DNA of 63,725 nt, filler included, from Gemmatimonadota bacterium (lineage in GTDB: Bacteria; 4572-55; J002), in NCBI GenBank assembly GCA_003697105.1. It is 3 parts of 3 records of this genome, joined end to end, with 100 filler letters (N's around TTAATTAATTAA, not from the genome) between each part and the next. Parts side by side here need not be neighbours in the genome. Positions count along the whole stretch, not along the records: positions 26,626 to 50,717 come from RFFQ01000047.1; 2 more parts are not named here. One strand, 5' to 3'. A program made the translations under genes and the position numbers. This document shows positions 32,575 through 45,914 of this stretch, piece by piece. Position 1 is the first letter of the stretch. Each line of letters starts with the position of its first letter. Below the pieces are notes generated by a model. That model did not search any database. It was given only the letters and a program-made list of their open reading frames with translations, and was not told where the DNA came from.

Positions 32575-34086
32575 ATGCTCAAATTACGCATCAGCTATAA
32601 GATAATTATTGGCGTTGGGTTTATTACCAGTGTCGCCATCATCGTATTTTCGTATTTGATTTTACGCTCCCAATGCCAAGGTATGGTATCCCAACTGCGG
32701 TTAAGTGGGTATCAGTTGAGTGAAACAATCAAAAGTAGTACACGCCATGATATGTTGACCGCCGATCAGGAAAATGTCCACCGCACCATTGACCAAATTG
32801 GGATGCAAAAAGGGATCAATAAGGTTCGTATTTTCAATAAGATCGGCATGATCATGTATTCGTCCGATAAAGATGAAATTAATACGATGGTCGATAAAAA
32901 CGCCGAAGCGTGTTATGTATGCCATGCGGCGGATCAGCCCTTAGAAAAGCTCTCTATCCCGGAACGGACACGAATATTTAAAGGGAATGATGGGCACCGA
33001 AGTTTAGGGATTATCAACCCTATTTATAACGAGCCTAGTTGTTGGCAGGGGGACTGCCATGCCCACCCGAAAGACCAAAAAGTATTGGGTGTATTGGATA
33101 TTACCCTGTCATTAGAAGATACGGATCGCTTAATTGCTCTAAACCGGAAGCGGATGGTCATTTTCGGAATCGTCGTGCTCACCCTGGTGAGCGTTATATT
33201 ATGGCGATTGGTTCAAAAATTAGTCGGTGAGCCGGTGAAAATGTTAGTTGAAGCCACAAAGGTGATTGCCAGTGGAAATCTCAATCACAAAATCAAAATT
33301 AATTCTCGTGATGAACTAGGAGACCTGGCACAGGCATTCAATGTGATGACAGAAAAACTAGTGGAAGCCCAACATCAGGTTTACCAGCAAGATAAGTTGG
33401 CGTCATTAGGGCGTTTAGCCGCCGGTGTGGCACACGAGATCAACAATCCGCTTACCGGAATCCTGACATACAGTAGTTTTTTGCTCAAACGGAGTGAACA
33501 CTATCCTGAGATTAAAGACGATCTGGATGTTATTGTGCGGGAAACAAAACGATGCCGGGACATCGTTAAAGGCTTACTCGATTTTGCCCGACAAGTACCT
33601 TCCAAAAAAAGCCATCTCAATATTAATGACGTCATCTGCCATAGCCTTGATCTGCTGGAAAATCAACTGTTATTGCACCATATCCACGTCGAAAAAGAGC
33701 TTAGCCCCACCGTACCGGATATTATTGCCGACGCCAATCAGATGGAGCAAGTATTTATCAACCTGATTGTCAACGCGGCAGACGCCATCGGAGAACAAAA
33801 AAACGGTGTCCTCCGCATTAAAAGTGAAGCTCAGATGATCAATTTCCGAAATTATGTGAAAATTGACCTCAGTGATAATGGATGCGGTATGTCCGAAGAC
33901 CAACTCTCCAAAATTTTTGAGCCTTTTTATACCACCAAAGGGCAAAAAGGAACAGGCTTAGGACTCGCTGTCGTCTGGGGAATTATGGAAAAACATGGGG
34001 GAAAAATCAAGGTTGAAAGCCAACCGGGGCAGGGCACCACTTTTACCTTGCTTTTTCCCGTCGATGGCGAACAATCATCACTTTGA
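32575..34086 (+). CDS. Sensor histidine kinase with heme-c-binding periplasmic domain and HAMP
   Basis: Two TM helices; CYVCH and CWQGDCH in the periplasmic part; AHEINNPL H-box, N/G boxes. Confidence 0.93.
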   Translation: MLKLRISYKIIIGVGFITSVAIIVFSYLILRSQCQGMVSQLRLSGYQLSETIKSSTRHDMLTADQENVHRTIDQIGMQKGINKVRIFNKIGMIMYSSDKDEINTMVDKNAEACYVCHAADQPLEKLSIPERTRIFKGNDGHRSLGIINPIYNEPSCWQGDCHAHPKDQKVLGVLDITLSLEDTDRLIALNRKRMVIFGIVVLTLVSVILWRLVQKLVGEPVKMLVEATKVIASGNLNHKIKINSRDELGDLAQAFNVMTEKLVEAQHQVYQQDKLASLGRLAAGVAHEINNPLTGILTYSSFLLKRSEHYPEIKDDLDVIVRETKRCRDIVKGLLDFARQVPSKKSHLNINDVICHSLDLLENQLLLHHIHVEKELSPTVPDIIADANQMEQVFINLIVNAADAIGEQKNGVLRIKSEAQMINFRNYVKIDLSDNGCGMSEDQLSKIFEPFYTTKGQKGTGLGLAVVWGIMEKHGGKIKVESQPGQGTTFTLLFPVDGEQSSL

Positions 34087-34110
34087 ACCAAATGGAGTAA
34101 CTCTGCCTTC

Positions 34111-34848
34111 ATGGGAAAACCATATGATATACTGATTATAGATGACGAAGAGGTGGTGGTCAATGCCACTATTAAAATTATGAGCCTCGAAGGGTTCACG
34201 GTGGATAGCGCCTTGGATGCCAAAACCGGTTTGGAAAAATTGGCAACACAGCAATATCGTCTTCTACTTACCGATTTAATGTTGCCCGATATGTCCGGCT
34301 ATGAAGTTATCACGTACATGAAAGCAAAGGGAATACAAATTCCGATCATTCTGATTACCGGTTATGCGACACTCGATAATGCGGTTAAAGCCATGAAAAT
34401 GGGGATTTTTGATTTTATTCCCAAACCCTTTGAAATTGAGGAACTGCTAGGTGTAACCCTGAGAGCCTGGCGCGTTCAAGCGGACGATATCCCTGCTGAC
34501 CCACCGTGTCCCTCGCGGCGCTATTTGGGCAAACATGCTTGGGTAGATATCGATTCCGACGGTAGGGCGCATATCGGTGCTGCGGCACTCTTCCGAAAAA
34601 CCGTAGGTACGATCAACCATATTCATTTCCCGGCAAGGGGTCAGGAGGTAAAACAAGGCGGGCAGTGTTTAAAATTCCAAACGGATGATACCTATCAGCA
34701 TACCCTTTGGTCACCGCTCAGTGGTATCGTGATCGAGACAAATCATACGATTCAACAGCACCCCACTCGCCTAAAAGATGAAAATCCGTGGCTGGTTCAG
34801 CTTCTTCCCAGTAACATGGATGCTGAAATTAAACATTTGACGTTATGA
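34111..34848 (+). CDS. Response regulator receiver fused to a GcvH-like domain
   Basis: IIDDE, TDLMLP, ITG and KPF; C-terminal HAWV...G.A.IG...SPLSG.V.E.N...W. Confidence 0.85.
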   Translation: MGKPYDILIIDDEEVVVNATIKIMSLEGFTVDSALDAKTGLEKLATQQYRLLLTDLMLPDMSGYEVITYMKAKGIQIPIILITGYATLDNAVKAMKMGIFDFIPKPFEIEELLGVTLRAWRVQADDIPADPPCPSRRYLGKHAWVDIDSDGRAHIGAAALFRKTVGTINHIHFPARGQEVKQGGQCLKFQTDDTYQHTLWSPLSGIVIETNHTIQQHPTRLKDENPWLVQLLPSNMDAEIKHLTL

Positions 34849-34905
34849 CCTGCATCATTGGGATTCATTTATATATACTACATTTTAGTCGTCATGGAGG
34901 CTATC

Positions 34906-36030
34906 ATGGTTGCCCTAATTGTCATTTTATGTATCGTCGCTTTTATCACGGCGGATGTGCTCATCCGAGTGATACTGCAACGCCTCGCTGAAGCTAAATT
35001 ACGCAAAGAGCGACAAGCGGCGTTGGAAACCGGTCTCCGCTTGGATTTTGCCGATGAAGCAAAAACACTGAAACGAGTGGAGGTGACCAACCCCAAAGCG
35101 AAAATTTTAGCAGTAGATGATGAAGAGGTTGTCCTCTCCAGTTTTCGGAAGATTCTAGTGCTTGCCGGATATTCTATTGATACTGTGGAAACCGGTCAGG
35201 AAGCTTTGATGCTGGTTCAACATCATGATTACGATTTCGTCTTCACCGACCTCAAAATGCCAGAGATGGATGGCGTCGAGGTGGTCAAGGGGGTCAAACA
35301 CCTCCGCCCAGACATCGATGTGATCGTCATTACGGGCTACGCCACCATTGAAACCGCCGTCGAAACAATGAAATATGGCGCAATGGACTACGTCCAGAAA
35401 CCTTTCACCGAAGATGAATTGGTCGATTTTGTCAATAAGACCTACATCCGGCGCCAAGACCGGTTGGAACGGCAAATCAAACCGAAAATCCATTTAGTGA
35501 CACCTACCAGCGGTGAATCTCCTGACAAACACACCTTTAATGTCCCCGCCGGTATTTTCATCGCTCCCGAACATACTTGGGTCAGCATCCAGCTCAACGG
35601 GATGGCCCGCGTAGGGCTTGATGATTTTGCACAAAAAATCATCGGTGAAATTGATGACGTGAAACTCCCGAAAATCGATCAAGTTGTGAAGAAGGGAGAA
35701 CCCCTGTTTACGATCAAACACCTTTCTAACTCGATTCAATTTTTTGCCCCGATTAGCGGAAAAGTAACCGCTATCAATACAGAATTGATAAGTGATATTG
35801 ATGCCATCAAATACAAGCCGTACGCCGAGGGGTGGATTTGTAACATCGAACCGGAACGGCTAACCGAAGAATTGCCTTCCCTGAAAATTGGTGCAGATGC
35901 GCTCGCGTGGTATCAACAGGAAGTCGATACGTATATCGATTTAGTCAAAAAAATCAGTGATCCGGATGCGTTTTGGACCACAATTTCCAAAATGTTTTTT
36001 CAGCCAAAAACGGAGTCGGGAAAGGAGTGA
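34906..36030 (+). CDS. Membrane-anchored response regulator receiver fused to a GcvH-like domain
   Basis: N-terminal TM; VDDE, TDLKMP, KPF; HTWV...RVGLDDFAQ...APISGKVTAIN...PYAEGWI; GGAGG RBS. Confidence 0.88.
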   Translation: MVALIVILCIVAFITADVLIRVILQRLAEAKLRKERQAALETGLRLDFADEAKTLKRVEVTNPKAKILAVDDEEVVLSSFRKILVLAGYSIDTVETGQEALMLVQHHDYDFVFTDLKMPEMDGVEVVKGVKHLRPDIDVIVITGYATIETAVETMKYGAMDYVQKPFTEDELVDFVNKTYIRRQDRLERQIKPKIHLVTPTSGESPDKHTFNVPAGIFIAPEHTWVSIQLNGMARVGLDDFAQKIIGEIDDVKLPKIDQVVKKGEPLFTIKHLSNSIQFFAPISGKVTAINTELISDIDAIKYKPYAEGWICNIEPERLTEELPSLKIGADALAWYQQEVDTYIDLVKKISDPDAFWTTISKMFFQPKTESGKE

Positions 36031-36035
36031 GGTAA

Positions 36036-36833
36036 ATGCACCCCCAAAGTAATAGCGAGGGTTACGCCATTTTAACCGACCTGACCAAGTGTATCGGCTG
36101 CGAAGCGTGTGTACAAGCTTGCAAAACGATCAACGAACTACCACCGGCAGAACATCCTTCTAAACTATCTGCGACCACCTGGACATACATTGATCGTCGG
36201 GAGGGTGTGAACATCCGCCGGCAGTGCCTGCACTGTCTTGATCCGGCCTGTGCCTCTGTCTGTCCGGTGGCGGCATTACATAAAACTGAGACTGGGGCGG
36301 TGATATACGATTTCAACCGGTGTATCGGATGCCGCTACTGTCTGTTAGCCTGTCCGTTTGAAATTCCCAAATATGAGTGGGATAAAGCGTTGCCGCGGGT
36401 GCAAAAGTGCATCCTTTGCTATGAAAAACGGGTATCCAAAGGCGAAGAACCGGCATGTACCGCCATCTGTCCCACCGGGGCGACCCTTTTCGGCAAACGT
36501 AACGAACTTCTCGATGTTGCTCGCCAACGGATCAAAGATCATCCTGAAATATACGTGAATCATATCTACGGTGTGGCAGAAGCGGGCGGCACATCCGTGC
36601 TGTACCTCTCTGATGTACCCTTCGAGCAGTTAGGGTTTAAAACCGCGCAAACCACCCCCTACCCCCAACTAACATGGAATATCTTACGCCATATCCCCAC
36701 CGTCGTTAGTGTGGGGGGTGTCGGTATGTTGGGCACCTGGTGGATTATCCATCGACGGATGCTGATCGAAAAGGTCAATAACGGCGAACTCTCCGAGGAA
36801 GAAGCTTTCGGAAAGCGAGGTGAAACCCCATGA
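36036..36833 (+). CDS. 4x[4Fe-4S] electron-transfer subunit (HybA/HmcB-like) with C-terminal TM anchor
   Basis: CIGCEACVQAC, CLHCLDPACASVCP, CIGCRYCLLACP, CILC...PACTAICP; YG..EAGGTSVLY. Confidence 0.92.
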   Translation: MHPQSNSEGYAILTDLTKCIGCEACVQACKTINELPPAEHPSKLSATTWTYIDRREGVNIRRQCLHCLDPACASVCPVAALHKTETGAVIYDFNRCIGCRYCLLACPFEIPKYEWDKALPRVQKCILCYEKRVSKGEEPACTAICPTGATLFGKRNELLDVARQRIKDHPEIYVNHIYGVAEAGGTSVLYLSDVPFEQLGFKTAQTTPYPQLTWNILRHIPTVVSVGGVGMLGTWWIIHRRMLIEKVNNGELSEEEAFGKRGETP

Positions 36834-38374
36834 AGATAAAAATTACCTTTTGGCGGGTTATCGCTCTGCTGATTTTACTTGCTGGATTGTACGCTACTTT
36901 TCTGCGCTTCACGCGCGGTTTGGGGGCGGTAACGAACCTTTCGGATCAATTCCCGTGGGGCTTATGGATTGGTTTTGATGTATTGGTCGGGGTGGGGTTA
37001 GCCGCCGGGGGGTTCACGATTGCCGCTATCGTTCATATTTTCAATATCGAAACATACGAGTCGATTAGTCGCCCCACCTTATTGACGGCGTTTTTGGGCT
37101 ATTTGTTGGTTGCAACTGCTATTATGTTCGATATTGGGCAACCGCATCGAATTTGGCATCCAATCATCATGTGGAATCCGCATTCCGTGATGTTTGAAGT
37201 CGCGTGGTGTGTCACCCTTTATCTGACCGTCCTGGCACTGGAATTTAGCCCGATTGTCTTTGAAAAATTCAATCTCAACGTTCCGCTGAAAGTGATGCGA
37301 ACCATTTATTTGCCGTTGGTTATTTTAGGAGTATTGCTTTCCATGCTCCACCAATCCTCACTCGGTACCGTATATGTGATTGTCCCGGATAAACTCTACG
37401 GGTTGTGGTATTCGCCGATGTTGCCGATTTTCTTCTTTATTTCAGCCATCTCGGTGGGACTCGCAATGACGATCTTTGAGTCATTCCTTAGTTACCGTGC
37501 CTTTGGTAAACGCCTCGAATTAAATATCCTAGTGGGGTTAGCACGGGTGTTAGTGGTTATCTTAGCCGTTTACCTGATCCTCAAGTTTCAGGATTTACGC
37601 TTACGGGGCAATCTACCGCTTGTCTTTCAACTCACTGAGGAAAGTGTTCTCTTTTGGGGTGAGATCGGCTTAGGCGTGTTCTTACCGATGATCCTGTTGT
37701 TTATTCCCCAAGTACGAGTAAAACGGGCAGGCTTATTTTTCTCCGCACTATTGGTGATAATGGGCTTCATCCTGAATCGACTCAACGTGAGCATTACCGG
37801 CATGTTACACAATGAAACATACTTTCCCAAATGGACTGAAGTCGCCATCACCCTAAGTTTTGTCACGGTTGGTTTCATCGTATTTGCTTTAGCGGTGAAA
37901 TATCTGGATATTTTCCCAACGGAAGAAATCGACCCGCATAATCCCCCGCCACTGGAACAGATAGGGCTTTCGGGTCGCGTCATTCTAGGCATGTGGGGAG
38001 TCGTGCTCGCTGGATTTATCATCTATGGTCTGGCTAAAGATAACCGGCTCGAACACCCGGTTGAAGCTGCCGCCATTGAACGCAAAACCGACCCGCTGCG
38101 TGAACTCGAATTTACTAATTTGCCAGCAGACATCGTCTATGACAAAAGTGATATGGGAACTGTGACATTCAGTCATGAGACACATCTATTGTTGGTAGAT
38201 AACCCCCAGTGCCAGCCATGCCACCCCAAGTTGTATGACTATAACATTACCCCCAAACAGCAGACCCCGCTGGTGGGTGACGTTATGCACGAATCTCAAT
38301 CCTGCGGGCACTGCCATAACGGTACGATGGCGTTCAGCATCGAGGAAGAATGTACGCTATGTCATGTAGAGTAA
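36830..38374 (+). CDS. NrfD/HybB/HmcC-like quinone-reactive membrane subunit fused to a C-terminal triheme c7-like domain
   Basis: TNLSDQFPWGLWIGFD, GLAAGGF, LHQSSLG; C-terminal FSHETH with CQPCH, CGHCH, CTLCH. Confidence 0.9.
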   Translation: MKIKITFWRVIALLILLAGLYATFLRFTRGLGAVTNLSDQFPWGLWIGFDVLVGVGLAAGGFTIAAIVHIFNIETYESISRPTLLTAFLGYLLVATAIMFDIGQPHRIWHPIIMWNPHSVMFEVAWCVTLYLTVLALEFSPIVFEKFNLNVPLKVMRTIYLPLVILGVLLSMLHQSSLGTVYVIVPDKLYGLWYSPMLPIFFFISAISVGLAMTIFESFLSYRAFGKRLELNILVGLARVLVVILAVYLILKFQDLRLRGNLPLVFQLTEESVLFWGEIGLGVFLPMILLFIPQVRVKRAGLFFSALLVIMGFILNRLNVSITGMLHNETYFPKWTEVAITLSFVTVGFIVFALAVKYLDIFPTEEIDPHNPPPLEQIGLSGRVILGMWGVVLAGFIIYGLAKDNRLEHPVEAAAIERKTDPLRELEFTNLPADIVYDKSDMGTVTFSHETHLLLVDNPQCQPCHPKLYDYNITPKQQTPLVGDVMHESQSCGHCHNGTMAFSIEEECTLCHVE

Positions 38375-38711: not shown

Positions 38712-40061
38712 ATGATCTTTAAACGTACGATTTTGTTCGTGGCTGTGATGGCATTAACCCTGTTCATCTGGCTTTCCGGATGTACGGATAAGTATCCTAC
38801 GGAAGAGGAAAAACAAGATCAGGTCGCGATGTCCAGTTGTACGACGTGCCACTTGAATGAAACGGTGCTCAAGGAGTTCGTTGGTAGTGATTTAGTACCT
38901 CCTCCCGGTTCTGGCGAAGGCTGAGGTGGTTCAGTGTCGGGGGTCCCGGCATGGAAGACAATTTTTGTGAATGCTGACTTTTTGGAAACCGTGCATGGCA
39001 GTATGGCGTGTGAAGACTGTCACGCCGGTAATCCAAAGAGCTTCACTCTGGAAGGCGCCCACGAAGGGCTGATCGCCCTGCCCAGTGAAAATGCCGTGGC
39101 GAGTTGCGGTGGCTGTCACGCTGATGTGACCGAGAAGTTTGCCACCAGCTTGCATTATAACCAAGAAGGTTATTTTCACTGGTTTGAGGAACGAGCCGGT
39201 TACGACCTGGCAAGTGATGCCCACAAATTACAGGAATTTGGCGCAGAATGCGGTAGCTGCCATACCTCCTGCGGGGATTGCCATATCGGACGTCCCAAAT
39301 CGAATGGCGGCGGGTTAGGCAATGGCGGCCATCTGTTTCAGGGGACGCCAAGCATGACCGACAACTGTACCGCCTGCCACGGCTCACGCGTGGGTGAAGA
39401 GTACACCGGTGCGCATACCAGTCAAGGCATTAAAGCGGATGTGCATTACATCCCCAATGCCAAACGGTGCGAATTCTGCCACAGCGGGGCGGAAATGCAC
39501 GGTGACGGCAATATCTATGTGGATCGCTATGATGCGGATATGGTACATGCCGTTAAGTGCGAGGATTGCCATGAGTCAGCGCGTAATGCCAACTTTTACC
39601 ACACCGTGCACTGGGCAGGTGGAGAGTCCAGTGGTAATAAGTTGCAATGCCAGGTTTGCCATTCCCAGTCCTACAAGAACTGTAACGGCTGCCATGTGGG
39701 TGGCGATGGTATCACTGGTTCATCCTATCTGACCTTTGAAATTGGTCGGAATTATATGAAGAGTGAACGCCATGATTTTGATTACATGGTAGTTCGCCAT
39801 ATCCCAATTGCACCGGATACCTACGCCGAATGGGGGGAATCGGATTTAGCCAACTATACGGCACATCCCACGTGGAAGCTCGCTACACCGCATAATATCC
39901 AGCGGTGGACCGAACAAACCACGGTTGAAGAAGGCGAATCCTGCGGCAGTTCCTGCCATGATAGTGACATTTATCTGCGCGAAAGTGACATCGAGCTGTA
40001 TAACGCCAGCGGTTACGAAGAACTGGAACGCATCGCCAACCAACCGGTGTTTATGGATTAG
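38712..40061 (+). CDS. Multiheme cytochrome c lipoprotein with in-frame UGA (candidate selenocysteine, GEG-U-GG); 449 aa if read through
   Basis: ORFs 38712-38924 and 38934-40061 are in the same frame, separated only by TGA 38922-38924. Lipobox LSGC and 1 CxxCH lie upstream; 9 CxxCH and 1 Cx3CH lie downstream; the downstream ORF has no signal peptide of its own. Confidence 0.8.
38930..38956 (+). promoter_or_regulatory. Candidate bacterial SECIS hairpin
   Basis: TTCAGTGTCGGG-GGT-CCCGGCATGGAA: 12-position stem with one mismatch and a G-initiated apical loop about 17 nt after the UGA. Confidence 0.7.
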
Positions 40062-40068
40062 TTTACCC

Positions 40069-40104
40069 GACCTCGCGGGAACGCCTTTCGCGAGGTCTAT
40101 TTTA
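40069..40104 (+). terminator. Hairpin after the Sec-cytochrome gene (terminator or stabiliser)
   Basis: GACCTCGCG...CGCGAGGTC followed by a T-rich tract. Confidence 0.55.
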
Positions 40105-40189: not shown

Positions 40190-41227
40190 ATGTTGTCCAA
40201 AAAATTATTTCTGGTGCTAATATTAACGTTTACGCTAAGCATGTTTATGTTGGGGTGTGATGATGATGACAATGGGAGTGGCGATACCGTCGATGAAACG
40301 GCACTGCTGTTAGCCGCCGGTGATGCCTATTTTGGTAGCTACCTGACCACTGCTGGGGAAAGCCCCAACATCTCCATCACAGAACTCTACGGGTTGCTCA
40401 CGGATACCGATACCACAAATGATCCGTATCTTCTGGATTTTCGTTCGGAAAGCGATTTTAACGCGGGGCATATCAACGGGGCGGTGCACATGTCTTTGTC
40501 AGAATTACCGGACGCCGTGGATACATTGCCGACAGACAAAACGATTGTTACGATCTGCTATATGGGGCAAACCGCCAGCCACGCGGCGGCATTTATCAAT
40601 TTGATTGCCCAAGACCCAGACTATTCCGGCTTACATGCGCGTAATTTACTGTTTGGGATGAGTGCGGTCGGTACGCCATCCGGACCGTACATCCAGAATT
40701 GGGTCAATACCATTGCCACGGATGAATGGGTTGATCAATTGGAGACCACTCCCCACACCGCAACCCAAACCTATGATCTGCCGACCATCAATACGGGGGA
40801 AAACACCCTGGCAGAAATTCTGAAAGCACGTTGGACGGAATATCTGACAAGCAATGGGAATTGGGCAAACCTGACCAACACCGCAGACGTTTTTGTAAAC
40901 AATAGTAATTATTTTATTATCAACTATTGGCCCCAAAGTGAGTATGAAAATCCGGGACACATTCCAGGTGCCTATTGCTTTCCACCCAAAACGTCAATCC
41001 AATCGGATGCGGATCTGAACAAACTGCCATTGGATCAAGACATTATTGTTTATTGCTACACAGGACAAACATCTGCCCAATTAGCGGCATATCTGCGGTT
41101 ATTGGGCTACAAAGCCTGGAGTCTGGCATGGGGCGTCAATGGGTTTGCCTATCATGCCTTAGATGGCATTGGGCACCAATACAGTCCTCCGGTAGATGAC
41201 CATTCTGCCATTTTGTGGACACCTTAA
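40190..41227 (+). CDS. Tandem-rhodanese lipoprotein (sulfur/selenium transferase-like)
   Basis: Lipobox MLGC-DDDD; two rhodanese domains with GHINGA/CYMGQTA and GHIPGA/CYTGQTS active-site loops. Confidence 0.9.
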   Translation: MLSKKLFLVLILTFTLSMFMLGCDDDDNGSGDTVDETALLLAAGDAYFGSYLTTAGESPNISITELYGLLTDTDTTNDPYLLDFRSESDFNAGHINGAVHMSLSELPDAVDTLPTDKTIVTICYMGQTASHAAAFINLIAQDPDYSGLHARNLLFGMSAVGTPSGPYIQNWVNTIATDEWVDQLETTPHTATQTYDLPTINTGENTLAEILKARWTEYLTSNGNWANLTNTADVFVNNSNYFIINYWPQSEYENPGHIPGAYCFPPKTSIQSDADLNKLPLDQDIIVYCYTGQTSAQLAAYLRLLGYKAWSLAWGVNGFAYHALDGIGHQYSPPVDDHSAILWTP

Positions 41228-41293: not shown

Positions 41294-42496
41294 ATGATGA
41301 AAAAGATTATCAGTTTGATATGCCTGTTGTTGATAGTTGGTCTTTGGACTCAAGGCTGGAGCCAAACGTGGGAAACACGCGGGAAACTTACGACTGCGAT
41401 TTACGCGTTTGAAGATTCGATTCAGCACCAGCGGGTTTACGAAACTGTACGGTTTGAAGCAAAACATGACAAATTCCGGTTTAACTTTGCCGGACGTGCC
41501 ATGATGGATATGAATTCCGACGATGAAACCGACGATGAGCGGTTGCTCAAGGCGCACAGTGCCTCTATTTCGGGGGATGGGCTGTTCAATGGTCTGTTGG
41601 ATTTCACGGTGGGACGGCAGTTTTTGCACCCCGGCTTGGTGTTTGGCAGTCTGGATGGGGTGAATCTGGTTTGGCATCCCATGGAAAAGTTGGATTGGCA
41701 GATGTACGGTGGGGTAGAAAGCCACCTCTACCGGAGCTTTAAAATCTACAACAGTGATGATGCCACCGTTTACGGAACTGCCCTGCGCTACCGTGATGTG
41801 TTCAACTCCACCATTCAATTGGTCTATTTCAATAAAAGTACCGCGGATGAAACCCAATGGGAAATCGCCGGAGTGAATCTCAATAATCGCTCTCTGTCGT
41901 GGTTGAATCTCTCATTGCAAGCCCATAACGATCTGGTCAATGAGCGCCTACACCGGTTGTACGGGCAAGTCCGTCTCATCCCCTCAGAGCGCTACAATCT
42001 GGTTTTCCGGTACAAACAGCAATACCCGCAAGTTTACGGGGATTCATTCTTTAAAATTTTTGATATTAAACAATATGAGCAACTGAGTTTTGGCGCAAAT
42101 TACTTTATCACCGCTAAATACGCGCTCATGGCGGATTATCAGATGGTCAGTTTAGCTGATGGGGAAGGCAATGCCAATCGATTGTATATCACCCTTAGTG
42201 ATTTGAACGGGTCAATCGGGTTCATCTATGAAAGCGGGGATTTGGGTGATGAAACGGGATTTTTGTTTGATTATGGCTATGATGTCACGGAGAAGTTAAC
42301 CGTATCCGCGAGTGTGGACTTCTCGCGGTATCGTCTGGAAGAGGTTTATGATTACGAACGCCAAGTTGGAAATGCGTTTAAGCTGGCGTATAAATTCAGC
42401 AACAATCTGCGGGCAGATGTCGAATATCAATTTTTGAACAATTATGTGAAATACGAAGACCATCGACTTTTAGCTCACATCCATTTTATGTGGTAA
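41294..42496 (+). CDS. Outer-membrane beta-barrel (porin-like) protein
   Basis: Signal peptide; alternating aromatic-rich beta strands; GRQF and LDG motifs; C-terminal aromatic residue (HIHFMW); next to multiheme cytochromes. Confidence 0.75.
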   Translation: MMKKIISLICLLLIVGLWTQGWSQTWETRGKLTTAIYAFEDSIQHQRVYETVRFEAKHDKFRFNFAGRAMMDMNSDDETDDERLLKAHSASISGDGLFNGLLDFTVGRQFLHPGLVFGSLDGVNLVWHPMEKLDWQMYGGVESHLYRSFKIYNSDDATVYGTALRYRDVFNSTIQLVYFNKSTADETQWEIAGVNLNNRSLSWLNLSLQAHNDLVNERLHRLYGQVRLIPSERYNLVFRYKQQYPQVYGDSFFKIFDIKQYEQLSFGANYFITAKYALMADYQMVSLADGEGNANRLYITLSDLNGSIGFIYESGDLGDETGFLFDYGYDVTEKLTVSASVDFSRYRLEEVYDYERQVGNAFKLAYKFSNNLRADVEYQFLNNYVKYEDHRLLAHIHFMW

Positions 42497-42509: not shown

Positions 42510-43376
42510 ATGAAAAAACTTATCTATCTTGGAATTTGTGTCCTTTGGGGGATGGGGAGTGTGGCTGCCGCTACCGAAGCCTCGTTTTCACATAAGCTCC
42601 ATACCGGCATGGGGTTAGGTTGTGAGACGTGTCATGATGCCGCCTTCACTAGCGAAACATCTGCAGATGATCTCATTCCCAATTTTGATGAGGTCTGCTT
42701 GATGTGCCATGAAGCCAGCGATATTGCAAAAACCCAATTTGAGCCTGTTGCCTTCAAAGCCGATTTCCCGCATAAGAGTCACGCCACCAGCGCAGAGGAT
42801 TGCATGACCTGCCACCAAGGAATTGACCAAAAAGAGGCGACAGATGGCACATATCATCTGCCAACAGGGCAAACGTGCAACGGTTGCCATGCCGGTGCCG
42901 ACGTTGCCGAGCAAAAAGATGATTGTTACCAATGCCATAATCTGGAGATGGTGCTGATGCCAGCAAATCACACTGTTGGTTGGAAAAATGGGCACGGTAT
43001 GACCGTCCACATGGAGACCGCGGCCTCCTGCGGACACTGCCATAATACCGAAACCTATTGCACCAATTGTCATCAGGGAGATAATCTGGATGCCACAGTT
43101 CATCCACTAAATTACCGCAAAACACACGGGATTCGTGCCAAAGGGAATCAGGATAATTGCCAAACGTGCCATCAGGAACAAGCCTTTTGTGTGGATTGTC
43201 ATCGCTCGGAAATGGTTATCCCCTCCAACCATACGTACGCTAACTGGGTTAGTGCTGAAGGTGGGCGTCATGCTAAATCGGCACAGTATGACCTCGATAG
43301 GTGTATGAGTTGCCATAACGATGCCTACACCGAATCCGTTTGTATGGGATGTCATGCCACACCATCAGAGGATTAA
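42510..43376 (+). CDS. Periplasmic 11-heme cytochrome c
   Basis: Signal peptide; 11 CxxCH counted; FSHKLH/FPHKSH c3/c7-like starts. Confidence 0.92.
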   Translation: MKKLIYLGICVLWGMGSVAAATEASFSHKLHTGMGLGCETCHDAAFTSETSADDLIPNFDEVCLMCHEASDIAKTQFEPVAFKADFPHKSHATSAEDCMTCHQGIDQKEATDGTYHLPTGQTCNGCHAGADVAEQKDDCYQCHNLEMVLMPANHTVGWKNGHGMTVHMETAASCGHCHNTETYCTNCHQGDNLDATVHPLNYRKTHGIRAKGNQDNCQTCHQEQAFCVDCHRSEMVIPSNHTYANWVSAEGGRHAKSAQYDLDRCMSCHNDAYTESVCMGCHATPSED

Positions 43377-43391
43377 GGAAATCATTCCATC

Positions 43392-45914
43392 ATGCGAAAT
43401 ACCCTGATTTTCTCCATAGGACTTCTTATATATTTCGCCGCATTGAGCTGGGCACAGGTGGATGATGACGAGTGCCTGATGTGCCATAGTGATGACAGTG
43501 ACCCGGCGCTGTACGTGGATGTAAATCAATTTATTGATACCGTACACGAGGGGTTTAGCTGTACGGATTGTCACAGCGATATTGAGGAAATTCCCCATGC
43601 TGAAGAGGTCGCCCCAGCAAATTGCGGTTTTTGCCATGACGACGTCGTAACGGCATTTCAGGAGAGTTATCACGGGCAGGTATTGGCACAAGGTGATAAA
43701 AACGCCCCGACCTGCGGCAGTTGCCATAATCATCACCGGATTCTACCGGCAAGCCATCTCAACGCCCCAACCCATCCCCTAAAAACGGGTGTGATGTGCG
43801 GGCAGTGCCATAAACAAGATGGTTCGGATTGGATTCATCGGGAGGCGAATACCGGTGGTAAGGTCAATTGTATTACTTGCCACACCGCCCATGAGGTACA
43901 ACCAGCAAGCCATCCGCAATCGACGATCAACAGCCGGAAAATGACCCAAACGTGCCGGAAGTGCCATACCCAATTGGAAGAACTCCATGCTGGGAAGGTT
44001 CGGGCGGAGGTCTTTCAACGTCCGGTGGATGAAATACCCGCCTGCACCACCTGTCACCAGCCCCATGCCAGCGCGAAATCAACGGATTTAGCAACTGAAA
44101 CCTGTTTGGCATGTCATGGCGAGGGGGCGGATTCTACGCTGTATGTCAACCATGAACAACTCAATGAATCCATTCATTGCAACTTTGATTGTATTGATTG
44201 CCACACGTCCATTACCACGTTGCCCCATGCTGAGAAGCTTCCAGATGCCGATTGTAGCTTTTGCCATGAGGATGCGGTCGCGGATTATGAGATCAGTATT
44301 CATGCAGAAGGACGCCGAGCCGGACTAGAAGCCGCAACATGTACCGATTGTCACGGAGCGCACGATATTCAAGCGTGCGAGGAGACCAGTGCCCAAGCCA
44401 ACCGGATGAATTTATCTGAAACATGTGGGCGTTGCCACTCCCGCCCGGAGGTCATCGCCCTTTTTCACCGGAAAGGTAGCGACCCCATTGAAAATTATAA
44501 ACAGGGCGTTCATGGTAAAAAACTGGCAGATGATCCTTCTGCCACCGTAGCTACCTGTATTGATTGTCATGGTAGCCATAAAATTTTGCCGTCAACGAAT
44601 CCGGAGTCATCATTTAACATTTTAAACATCTCGAAAACATGCGGGAAATGCCATAAAGAGGAAAGTGCTGAATATACGGAAAGTATCCACTGGGAGGCGC
44701 TCTCTTTCGGACATTATGAATCTCCAACGTGTAATGATTGTCATGGGGAGCACAATATTATTTCCCCGGAGGCAGAGTACGCGGTAACCCACCCGACACT
44801 GGTTTCCACAGAATTGTGCGCCAAGTGCCATTCCAACGAGCTGATCATGTCCCGGTTTGGGCTGGACCCTACCCGGTTTAATTCCTATATGAAAACGTAC
44901 CATGGTCTGGCGATTTTGAAAGGTTCACCGGATGCTGCCAACTGTACCAGTTGCCATGAAGTACATGCCATCCGGGCAGCGAGTGATACATTGTCCAGTG
45001 TGCATCCTCGTAATCTGAATGAAACGTGCGGGAAATGTCATGAGAATGTGACGGCCAATTTCACCCAAATTGAGATGCACCCCCGCGATCAAAAATCGCG
45101 GAATCCGGTCGCTTATCTGATTAAAATCATCTATTTCTGGCTGATTGGTCTGACCATCGGTGGAATGGTCCTTCATAATCTTATCATCTTTTTGTATTAC
45201 GTGGTGAATAAATGGCGTAAAGAACGGAGTCAACGACTGGTTCAACGGTTTCACCTAATTGATGTGATCAACCATTTACTGCTTATCGTGAGTTTTACCG
45301 TACTGGTGGTGACCGGCTTTGCGCTCAAATTTCCCGAAGATTTATGGGTAAAAGCACTGGTACTCCTGGGCTTGACCGAGCCGATCCGTGCATCATTACA
45401 CCGAATGGCGGCGGTGATCCTTGTGATCAGTGCCATCAGCCAAGCCCTCTATTTTATCCTGCACCCCAGAGGACGACACGATTTGCGGGCACTGCGCCCA
45501 ACGATTAATGATCTAACCGGATTCTTCAAAAACATGATGTACTACTTGCGCTTGCGCAAAGATAAACCCAAATTCGACCGGTACGATTATACCGAAAAAG
45601 CCGAATATCTAGCACTGATTTGGGGGACTGCTGTGATGGCAATCACCGGATTTATCCTCTGGTTTCCGGCAATTTTTATGGCATATCTGCCCAGTTGGGC
45701 GTTTGAAGTGAGTGAAGTCGTCCATTATTATGAAGCATGGTTGGCAACACTGGCGATCCTCATTTGGCACGGCTTTTTTGTCTTTCTACACCCCGAAAAA
45801 TATCCGTTAAGTTTAACGTGGATTGATGGCAAAATCACTGAAGACGAGTTTGAGCATCATCATGCCTTAGAAGCTGAGCGATTAAAAGCGAAAGAGACGA
45901 AAGAATCCGAATGA
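43392..45914 (+). CDS. 19-heme cytochrome c fused to a C-terminal cytochrome b (FdnI-type) membrane domain; CbcL-like architecture
   Basis: 19 CxxCH counted; C-terminal TM region with His ligands (INHLL, LHRMA, EKAEYLALIWG, VHYYEA..A...I..WH). Confidence 0.9.
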   Translation: MRNTLIFSIGLLIYFAALSWAQVDDDECLMCHSDDSDPALYVDVNQFIDTVHEGFSCTDCHSDIEEIPHAEEVAPANCGFCHDDVVTAFQESYHGQVLAQGDKNAPTCGSCHNHHRILPASHLNAPTHPLKTGVMCGQCHKQDGSDWIHREANTGGKVNCITCHTAHEVQPASHPQSTINSRKMTQTCRKCHTQLEELHAGKVRAEVFQRPVDEIPACTTCHQPHASAKSTDLATETCLACHGEGADSTLYVNHEQLNESIHCNFDCIDCHTSITTLPHAEKLPDADCSFCHEDAVADYEISIHAEGRRAGLEAATCTDCHGAHDIQACEETSAQANRMNLSETCGRCHSRPEVIALFHRKGSDPIENYKQGVHGKKLADDPSATVATCIDCHGSHKILPSTNPESSFNILNISKTCGKCHKEESAEYTESIHWEALSFGHYESPTCNDCHGEHNIISPEAEYAVTHPTLVSTELCAKCHSNELIMSRFGLDPTRFNSYMKTYHGLAILKGSPDAANCTSCHEVHAIRAASDTLSSVHPRNLNETCGKCHENVTANFTQIEMHPRDQKSRNPVAYLIKIIYFWLIGLTIGGMVLHNLIIFLYYVVNKWRKERSQRLVQRFHLIDVINHLLLIVSFTVLVVTGFALKFPEDLWVKALVLLGLTEPIRASLHRMAAVILVISAISQALYFILHPRGRHDLRALRPTINDLTGFFKNMMYYLRLRKDKPKFDRYDYTEKAEYLALIWGTAVMAITGFILWFPAIFMAYLPSWAFEVSEVVHYYEAWLATLAILIWHGFFVFLHPEKYPLSLTWIDGKITEDEFEHHHALEAERLKAKETKESE

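Follow-up and report, generated by a model that had tools for sequence, protein, structure and literature searches.

A candidate eleven-haem selenoprotein family, related to octahaem tetrathionate reductase and linked to rhodaneses, that gene annotations split at an in-frame UGA

Multihaem cytochromes that contain selenocysteine (Sec) have only recently been shown to be important, through work on MccSep, the polysulfide reductase of Geobacter sulfurreducens (PDB 9WT8) and an essential component of sulfur respiration in Geobacter (PMC13510729). The protein contains five haems, and its Sec325 lies in a D-G-U-P loop of a C-terminal Ig-like domain; its catalytic haem is His/Cys-ligated, using a second conserved Cys, and the Sec acts beside this haem as the nucleophile in polysulfide reduction (PMC13510729). 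The enzyme also reduces selenite, and octahaem tetrathionate reductase (OTR) and other multihaem enzymes are promiscuous on nitrogen and sulfur substrates (PMC13510729). As far as the available text of the two sources goes, the ExtKL cluster includes a rhodanese (ExtH) and the porin-like ExtI (PMC13510729, PMC5877670). The available part of a 2026 review names ExtKL (NF040886), the GSU2204 family (NF041027) and OTR (TIGR04315) as haem selenoprotein families (PMC13188914). Here, we describe positions 38712-40061 (plus strand, as are all features below) of a DNA stretch joined from three records of a Gemmatimonadota genome (GCA_003697105.1); "the window" denotes this whole stretch of 63,725 nucleotides (63.7 kb), filler included. 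These positions very probably form a single gene for an 11-haem, Sec-containing lipoprotein, in which a downstream hairpin would help to decode the UGA at 38922-38924 as Sec.

What is new here is a distinct OTR-related, rhodanese-linked, 11-haem family of predicted selenoproteins, separate from MccSep. It is not among the haem selenoproteins tabulated in the available part of the 2026 review (PMC13188914), and no earlier description of it was found in the literature, including the available text of PMC13188914, PMC9312934, PMC13326102 and PMC12013277; the supplementary data of PMC13510729 and of selenoproteome surveys may list relatives. No NCBIfam model covers the family. Public annotations cut its proteins short, leaving them without Sec, without an export signal and with one haem fewer. 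Selenoproteome surveys undercount owing to such truncated annotations, and metabolic reconstructions of the uncultured groups that carry the family miss a probable terminal reductase.

One reading frame across an in-frame UGA

Positions 38712-40061 hold one frame with a sole internal stop, the TGA at 38922-38924 in the context PPPGSGEG-TGA-GGSVSG, and end in a TAG stop codon (40059-40061). The initial annotation had placed open reading frames (ORFs) of 70 and 375 amino acids around this single TGA, which matches the sequence exactly: the first ORF (38712-38924) and the second (38934-40061) share the frame, and the TGA is the only break between them. Read through, the gene would encode a c-type cytochrome lipoprotein of 449 residues, and a Shine-Dalgarno-like AAGGAAGGTGAG lies upstream of the ATG at 38712. 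The N-terminal 70 residues comprise a signal peptide (38712-38783) that ends in the lipobox LSGC, together with haem motif 1 (C43-T-T-C-H47; 38838-38852). Cys24 of the lipobox is invariant in all 70 aligned family sequences, i.e., the window protein and 69 from related loci. The 378 residues after the UGA form the cytochrome body with haem motifs 2-11 (38925-40058), nine of them CxxCH and one CxxxCH, and have no signal peptide. This division of the lipoprotein signal and haem motifs between the two parts had also been described correctly at the outset, as had the length of 449 residues, and the haem motifs now count to eleven.

A database search with the read-through protein returned 1405 relatives, with details available for the 120 listed. 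Among these 120, only two are full-length, P0020 with Cys and P0062 with Arg at position 71; the other 118 cover just 76-84% of the query because their ORFs start immediately past the TGA position, which shows that gene callers do split the gene. A scan of one genome per species gave at least 599 pattern matches and at least 579 confirmed relatives, the 80 best of which made up the set of loci. Opposite residue 71, these 80 loci have TGA in 69 cases, TGC or TGT (Cys) in nine and an Arg codon in two; in three of the TGA loci (L064, L078, L080) the automatic alignment was two codons off and was realigned by eye. Both flanks of the codon are conserved (G-E-G-U-G-G-x-V-x-P-L-E-x-W-E-K), so that the homologue comparison proposed with the initial annotation favours Sec at residue 71. 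The upstream parts of the relatives' genes bear lipoprotein signals, and 74 of the 80 loci allowed a complete ORF to be defined. The family is thus present in at least 579 species-level genomes, with labels that include Calditrichota, KSB1, Chloroflexota, Thermodesulfobacteriota, Planctomycetota, and others.

A maximum likelihood tree was built from 70 full-length members after the Sec column had been taken out of the alignment (quick search, support from the Shimodaira-Hasegawa-like approximate likelihood ratio test only, midpoint root for display). The tree shows two origins of the Cys forms, within or beside Sec clades: a clade of seven, labelled Ignavibacteriota/Bacteroidota, and a pair nested among Sec forms. 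Each of the Arg forms neighbours a Sec form, and a change from TGA to AGA, or to CGG via CGA, takes one or two base changes. One relative, P0007, starts right after its presumed UGA and bears at its C-terminus, in frame, the N-terminal module once more (C-L-T-C-H ... GGGSGEG, followed by a stop), a layout suggestive of a tandem arrangement or of a fused protein that has two putative Sec sites.

The downstream hairpin and the decoding of the UGA

In the available part of the review, bacterial Sec insertion sequences (bSECIS) are given a G in the first loop position and an apical loop 16-37 nt from the UGA (PMC13188914). The hairpin first reported for this gene, with a G-first GGU loop 17 nt after the UGA, is indeed present at 38930-38956 as TTCAGTGTCGGG-GGT-CCCGGCATGGAA; the initial annotation likened this loop to the GGUC-containing loop of E. 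coli fdhF. Its core helix of 7 bp (38935-38941 with 38945-38951) begins 10 nt after the UGA and encloses the loop GGU (38942-38944), and an outer 3-bp helix lies past a 1x1 mismatch. The position directly 3' of the UGA, the small apical loop, the leading G and the 17-nt spacing are all bSECIS-like, as far as the available account of bSECIS goes (PMC13188914). Unlike the bSECIS model, the element takes two alternative registers across lineages and matches no Rfam model, and contact with SelB is only presumed.

The fold of the window hairpin alone is modest evidence, the 71-nt minimum free energy fold around the UGA being no better than that of shuffled sequences (z -0.22); for a 39-nt fold of the hairpin z is -2.11, and 6 of 200 shuffles do as well. 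The significance of the hairpin comes instead from comparison with relatives, for which the 48 nt from the TGA on were aligned without gaps in 70 TGA-type genes. A 7-bp helix (columns 14-20 with 24-30, loop G21-N-U23) is paired in 76% of cells, vs. 42-51% when the partners are slid by one to three columns. Covariation bears out the hairpin, since compensatory changes on both sides occur in all seven pairs (41 cells) and none of 500 shuffles matches any of five measures; kinship alone can beat shuffles without any structure, but the slid control retains this relatedness and is still clearly lower. Some lineages have the helix shifted by two columns (16-22 with 28-34) with a UGGAA loop (columns 23-27). 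Counting either register, at least six of the seven pairs form in 63 of 70 TGA genes, vs. one of nine Cys genes and neither of the two Arg genes. The peptide of the window differs from that of the relatives at this place (S-G-V-P-A vs. x-P-L-E-x), and yet its helix is fully paired (7/7), through changes from CUCC/GGAG to CGGG/CCCG.

Genes of the Sec machinery were sought in relatives' metagenome-assembled genomes (MAGs), whose completeness is not known. Above its curated cut-off, selB (TIGR00475) occurs in eight of nine TGA-type genomes, one of nine Cys-type genomes and both Arg-type genomes, and tRNA-Sec (over its cut-off) and selA were each found in four of five TGA-type genomes. Together, the conservation of the TGA, the Cys substitutes, the covarying hairpin and the co-occurrence of selB strongly support the prediction of a selenoprotein.

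Several observations weigh against this prediction. The remaining TGA-type MAGs gave no match to selB (1/9), selA (1/5) or tRNA-Sec (1/5), and one Cys-type genome of the nine carries selB. Within the 63.7-kb window, ARAGORN found no tRNA gene and Rfam at gathering thresholds no match, the hairpin included, and therefore Sec decoding in the window's own organism rests on relatives. None of 12 other candidates for an in-frame TGA read-through scanned in the window was convincing. When compared to synonymous recodings of the same peptide, the window hairpin is not significant (z -1.16, p 0.117), and RNAalifold found no consensus structure when run on the 70 TGA sequences together, probably because two registers coexist in the pooled set. 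On the side of expression, no RNA run with this stretch is among the sequencing runs listed.

Two other explanations of the interrupted frame have to be considered, both of which we regard as very improbable. One is that the TGA is a true stop, separating a 70-aa lipoprotein from a 375-aa cytochrome, or else marks a pseudogene or an assembly error. Gene callers annotate two ORFs everywhere and the second has a GTG start at 38934, but this GTG sits inside the hairpin, one base ahead of the core helix, and the 375-aa part lacks a signal peptide, although the attachment of c-type haems during cytochrome c maturation requires export. In 69 of 80 species, moreover, conservation of frame and residues continues past the TGA, and nine relatives have Cys in one continuous ORF. 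The stretch is present in two runs of one hot-springs metagenome study, X1, which may be the source of this DNA, and X2, and since X2 carries the same TGA despite two other base differences, on contigs at a depth of about 27, the TGA is no assembly slip; the second run thus agrees with the initial annotation. The other explanation is that the UGA is read as an amino acid other than Sec (Trp, Gly, Cys or Arg), whether through near-cognate decoding or through a reassigned code. Two relatives do encode Arg at position 71, and the Sec assignment rests on sequence. However, TGA closes 11 of the 40 long ORFs in the window and is therefore an ordinary stop in this organism, the substitutes are almost all Cys, selB follows the TGA form rather than the Cys form, and the covarying hairpin lies at the usual location of a bacterial SECIS.

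Fold and relation to OTR

For the window protein, Pfam returned generic multihaem domains only and NCBIfam no match at E≤0.01; across the 70 aligned members NCBIfam gave weak matches only, including TIGR04315 in five and NF040886 in one. The OTR model TIGR04315 (cut-off 375 bits) has its best match among these five at E 2.3e-4. An AlphaFold2 model made from the 70-sequence alignment has a mean predicted local distance difference test score (pLDDT) of 88.6 and a predicted template modeling score of 0.82, with pLDDT above 90 in the haem-1 module (residues 41-60) and 69-78 in the Sec loop. This loop, placed with moderate confidence, may be the flexible arm or substrate carrier suggested in the initial annotation. 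Foldseek against the PDB placed 1sp3, the octahaem cytochrome (OTR) of Shewanella, in its best row with a weak E of 0.068, and nothing was found at E≤0.001. Among 48,161 chains compared by VIA-align, 1sp3_A comes first (Z 8.7, root-mean-square deviation 4.2, 252 residues, model residues 92-426), and the next row has Z 4.4. The family profile finds 1sp3 among the PDB sequences at E 3.1e-8 (hmmsearch). An alignment of ten true TIGR04315 members, taken from a 201-genome sample of one phylum, served as the OTR comparison set, and hhalign joins the family to it with 98.4% probability (E 9.6e-15, 235 columns), with haem motifs 1 and 2 aligned at high confidence. The sequence profiles and the model support the view that the family is a remote homologue of the OTR family with three extra haems: eight of the eleven haem motifs would correspond to OTR haems and three would be additional.

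In the 201-genome sample, 12 of the 30 matches above the TIGR04315 cut-off have a single in-frame TGA. Three of these Sec-type OTR genes were inspected (rows L087, L090, L091), and in all three the TGA stands in place of the N-N-F-C Cys (N-S-F-U-I-T), at a site between haem motifs 1 and 2. The Sec of the 11-haem family lies in the same segment between motifs 1 and 2, about 20 residues before the OTR NxF-C/U column. That column falls on Leu91 of the window protein and on Leu or other residues in the family, in a stretch that is aligned with low confidence. In one genome (G013), a member of the 11-haem family occurs alongside an OTR-type Sec gene.

Eleven haem motifs and ten non-motif His are conserved in the family, and therefore at least one haem has no conserved His as its sixth ligand. 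Apart from the lipobox Cys, position 71 is the only conserved free Cys/Sec. In OTR, haem 2 has a Lys ligand. The family shares with OTR the existence of Sec and Cys forms, the Sec between haem motifs 1 and 2, and the fold and profile match. It is unlike OTR in having eleven haem motifs instead of eight, scores far below the TIGR04315 cut-off, a Sec in GEG-U-GG elsewhere in the segment, a lipoprotein anchor and a linked rhodanese, and in having no conserved Lys; Met is not conserved either.

Rhodanese partner, proposed function and neighbourhood

Next to the cytochrome gene lies a conserved neighbour, the gene of a two-domain rhodanese lipoprotein (40190-41227), whose active-site residues C123 and C289 do not vary among 47 aligned homologues. 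When the neighbour proteins of the window were searched against all 80 loci by tblastn, an adjacent rhodanese turned up at 61 of them (53 of 69 TGA, eight of nine Cys, neither of the two Arg loci), mostly directly downstream on the same strand; several loci are truncated, which makes these counts lower bounds. As a group, these rhodaneses are lipoproteins of two and sometimes four domains, and both catalytic Cys are invariant throughout the aligned sequences. From this pairing comes a directly testable model in which selenium assists the transfer of sulfur to a haem enzyme.

Four loci depart from the general picture. L011 and L041 have Arg (CGG and AGA) in place of Sec and are without an adjoining rhodanese, and keep homologues of the barrel and the 288-aa cytochrome described below; their genomes have selB. 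Loss of Sec and loss of the rhodanese may be coupled, on the strength of these two cases only. L006 and L009, the Cys pair nested among Sec forms, partly retain the hairpin (7/7 and 5/7 pairs) and have only short rhodanese ORFs beside them, of 102 and 78 amino acids; of the two, only L006 is included in the count of eight rhodanese-bearing Cys loci. This pattern is consistent with a recent change from Sec to Cys and decay of the partner gene.

The gene neighbourhood and the homology to OTR make a Sec-dependent reductase of sulfane sulfur or polythionates the likely function. In the model that we propose, Sec71 would be the active-site nucleophile beside an OTR-like catalytic haem 2, the neighbouring rhodanese lipoprotein would hand sulfane sulfur (as persulfide, polysulfide or polythionate) to Sec71, and the resulting Se-S bond would be reduced to sulfide via the haem chain. 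Electrons would come from the quinol pool through an HmcBC-like module, other multihaem cytochromes and a porin-like barrel. The module comprises an HmcB-like 4Fe-4S protein (36036-36833) and an HmcC/NrfD-like membrane subunit, predicted to interact with quinones, that is fused to a trihaem c7 domain (36830-38374), both scoring under their equivalog cut-offs. The other cytochromes are a multihaem c-type protein of 288 aa with c7/c3-type domains (42510-43376) and an 840-aa protein in which a multihaem cytochrome c is joined to a membrane domain of cytochrome b561 type (43392-45914). The barrel is a probable outer-membrane beta-barrel (41294-42496) recognized from its signal peptide, C-terminal aromatics and porin-like look-alikes, a lead only, outside any Pfam or NCBIfam family. 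For this joint model of a Sec nucleophile beside haem 2, rhodanese delivery and Se-S reduction, we see the chances as about even.

In the Sud/Psr system, a rhodanese-like sulfur carrier feeds polysulfide reductase. The present locus is similar in that a rhodanese-family protein is encoded together with a candidate terminal reductase and a membrane NrfD-type quinol module; it differs in that the candidate reductase is a haem/Sec protein and no molybdoenzyme. Conceptually, the proposed mechanism would resemble the Sec-based proposal for MccSep. We consider it unlikely, though worth stating, that Sec71 serves as the sixth (distal) ligand of the OTR-like haem 2 or as its covalent partner in catalysis, i.e., that a natural His/Sec-type site exists in a rhodanese-fed lipoprotein facing the surface or the periplasm; if true, this would be a second, independently evolved route of haem-selenium sulfur respiration across many uncultured phyla. 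Two points count against the functional part of our proposal. The position of Sec71 beside haem 2 is something we infer, since the alignment to OTR is of low confidence just at Sec71, and the substrate is proposed from OTR homology and gene neighbours only.

Other assignments bear on this proposal to different degrees. Membership of the published MccSep/ExtKL polysulfide reductase family would explain much at first sight, as both are multihaem cytochrome c selenoproteins split by gene callers at the UGA, with rhodanese and porin-like genes in the cluster, as far as the available text of the sources goes (PMC13510729, PMC5877670). However, the eleven haem motifs contrast with the five haems of MccSep, Sec71 in GEG-U-GG with Sec325 in the Ig-like domain at the C-terminus, and there is no second conserved free Cys. 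A phmmer search of the window protein against the PDB sequences, including the 9WT8/9WT9 chains, gave no match at E≤1, and the family profile left these MccSep chains unmatched at E≤10. NF040886 (cut-off 250 bits) has no match to the window protein at E≤0.1 and matches one of the 70 members at E 0.0049; five genomes with family members gave sub-threshold matches to it only. MccSep is also absent from the ten VIA-align rows with Z≥2, which we do not count as evidence. With a different number of haems, a different Sec site and no sequence or profile match, identity as MccSep/ExtKL is rejected, and we give it next to no probability. Possible, though clearly the less favoured option, is a real selenoprotein with another job, such as thiosulfate or sulfide oxidation (TsdA-like), or reduction of selenite/tellurite, nitrite/hydroxylamine or extracellular metals. 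The promiscuity of OTR and other multihaem enzymes and the action of MccSep on selenite (PMC13510729) would fit such roles, as would weak matches to Ext cytochromes, from the operon for selenite/tellurite (ExtM in 41 of the 70 members), and the resemblance of the window cluster to a porin-cytochrome conduit; reduction and oxidation are both compatible with the data here. Against them, the close association with a rhodanese whose two catalytic Cys are invariant points to the handling of sulfane sulfur.

Directly 3' of the stop codon, in the gap that separates the cytochrome gene from the rhodanese gene, a terminator-like hairpin with a T run (40069-40097) was found in a consensus scan whose count is not above that of shuffled sequences; it is GC-rich, has 12 bp and may be a terminator or an attenuator. 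Two of the neighbouring proteins are unusual fusions, namely the NrfD/HmcC-like protein with its C-terminal trihaem c7 domain (36830-38374) and the cytochrome with the b561-type domain (43392-45914). Upstream of the HmcB-like gene, positions 32575-36030 encode a histidine kinase together with a pair of response regulators that carry fused GcvH-like (lipoyl-type) domains. The two regulator fusions (34111-34848 and 34858-36030) lie downstream of the histidine kinase, and the combination of a receiver with an H-protein is an unusual output. Homologues of the first of them (34111-34848) are found near family members in five of the 80 loci (L002, L003, L013, L077, L080).

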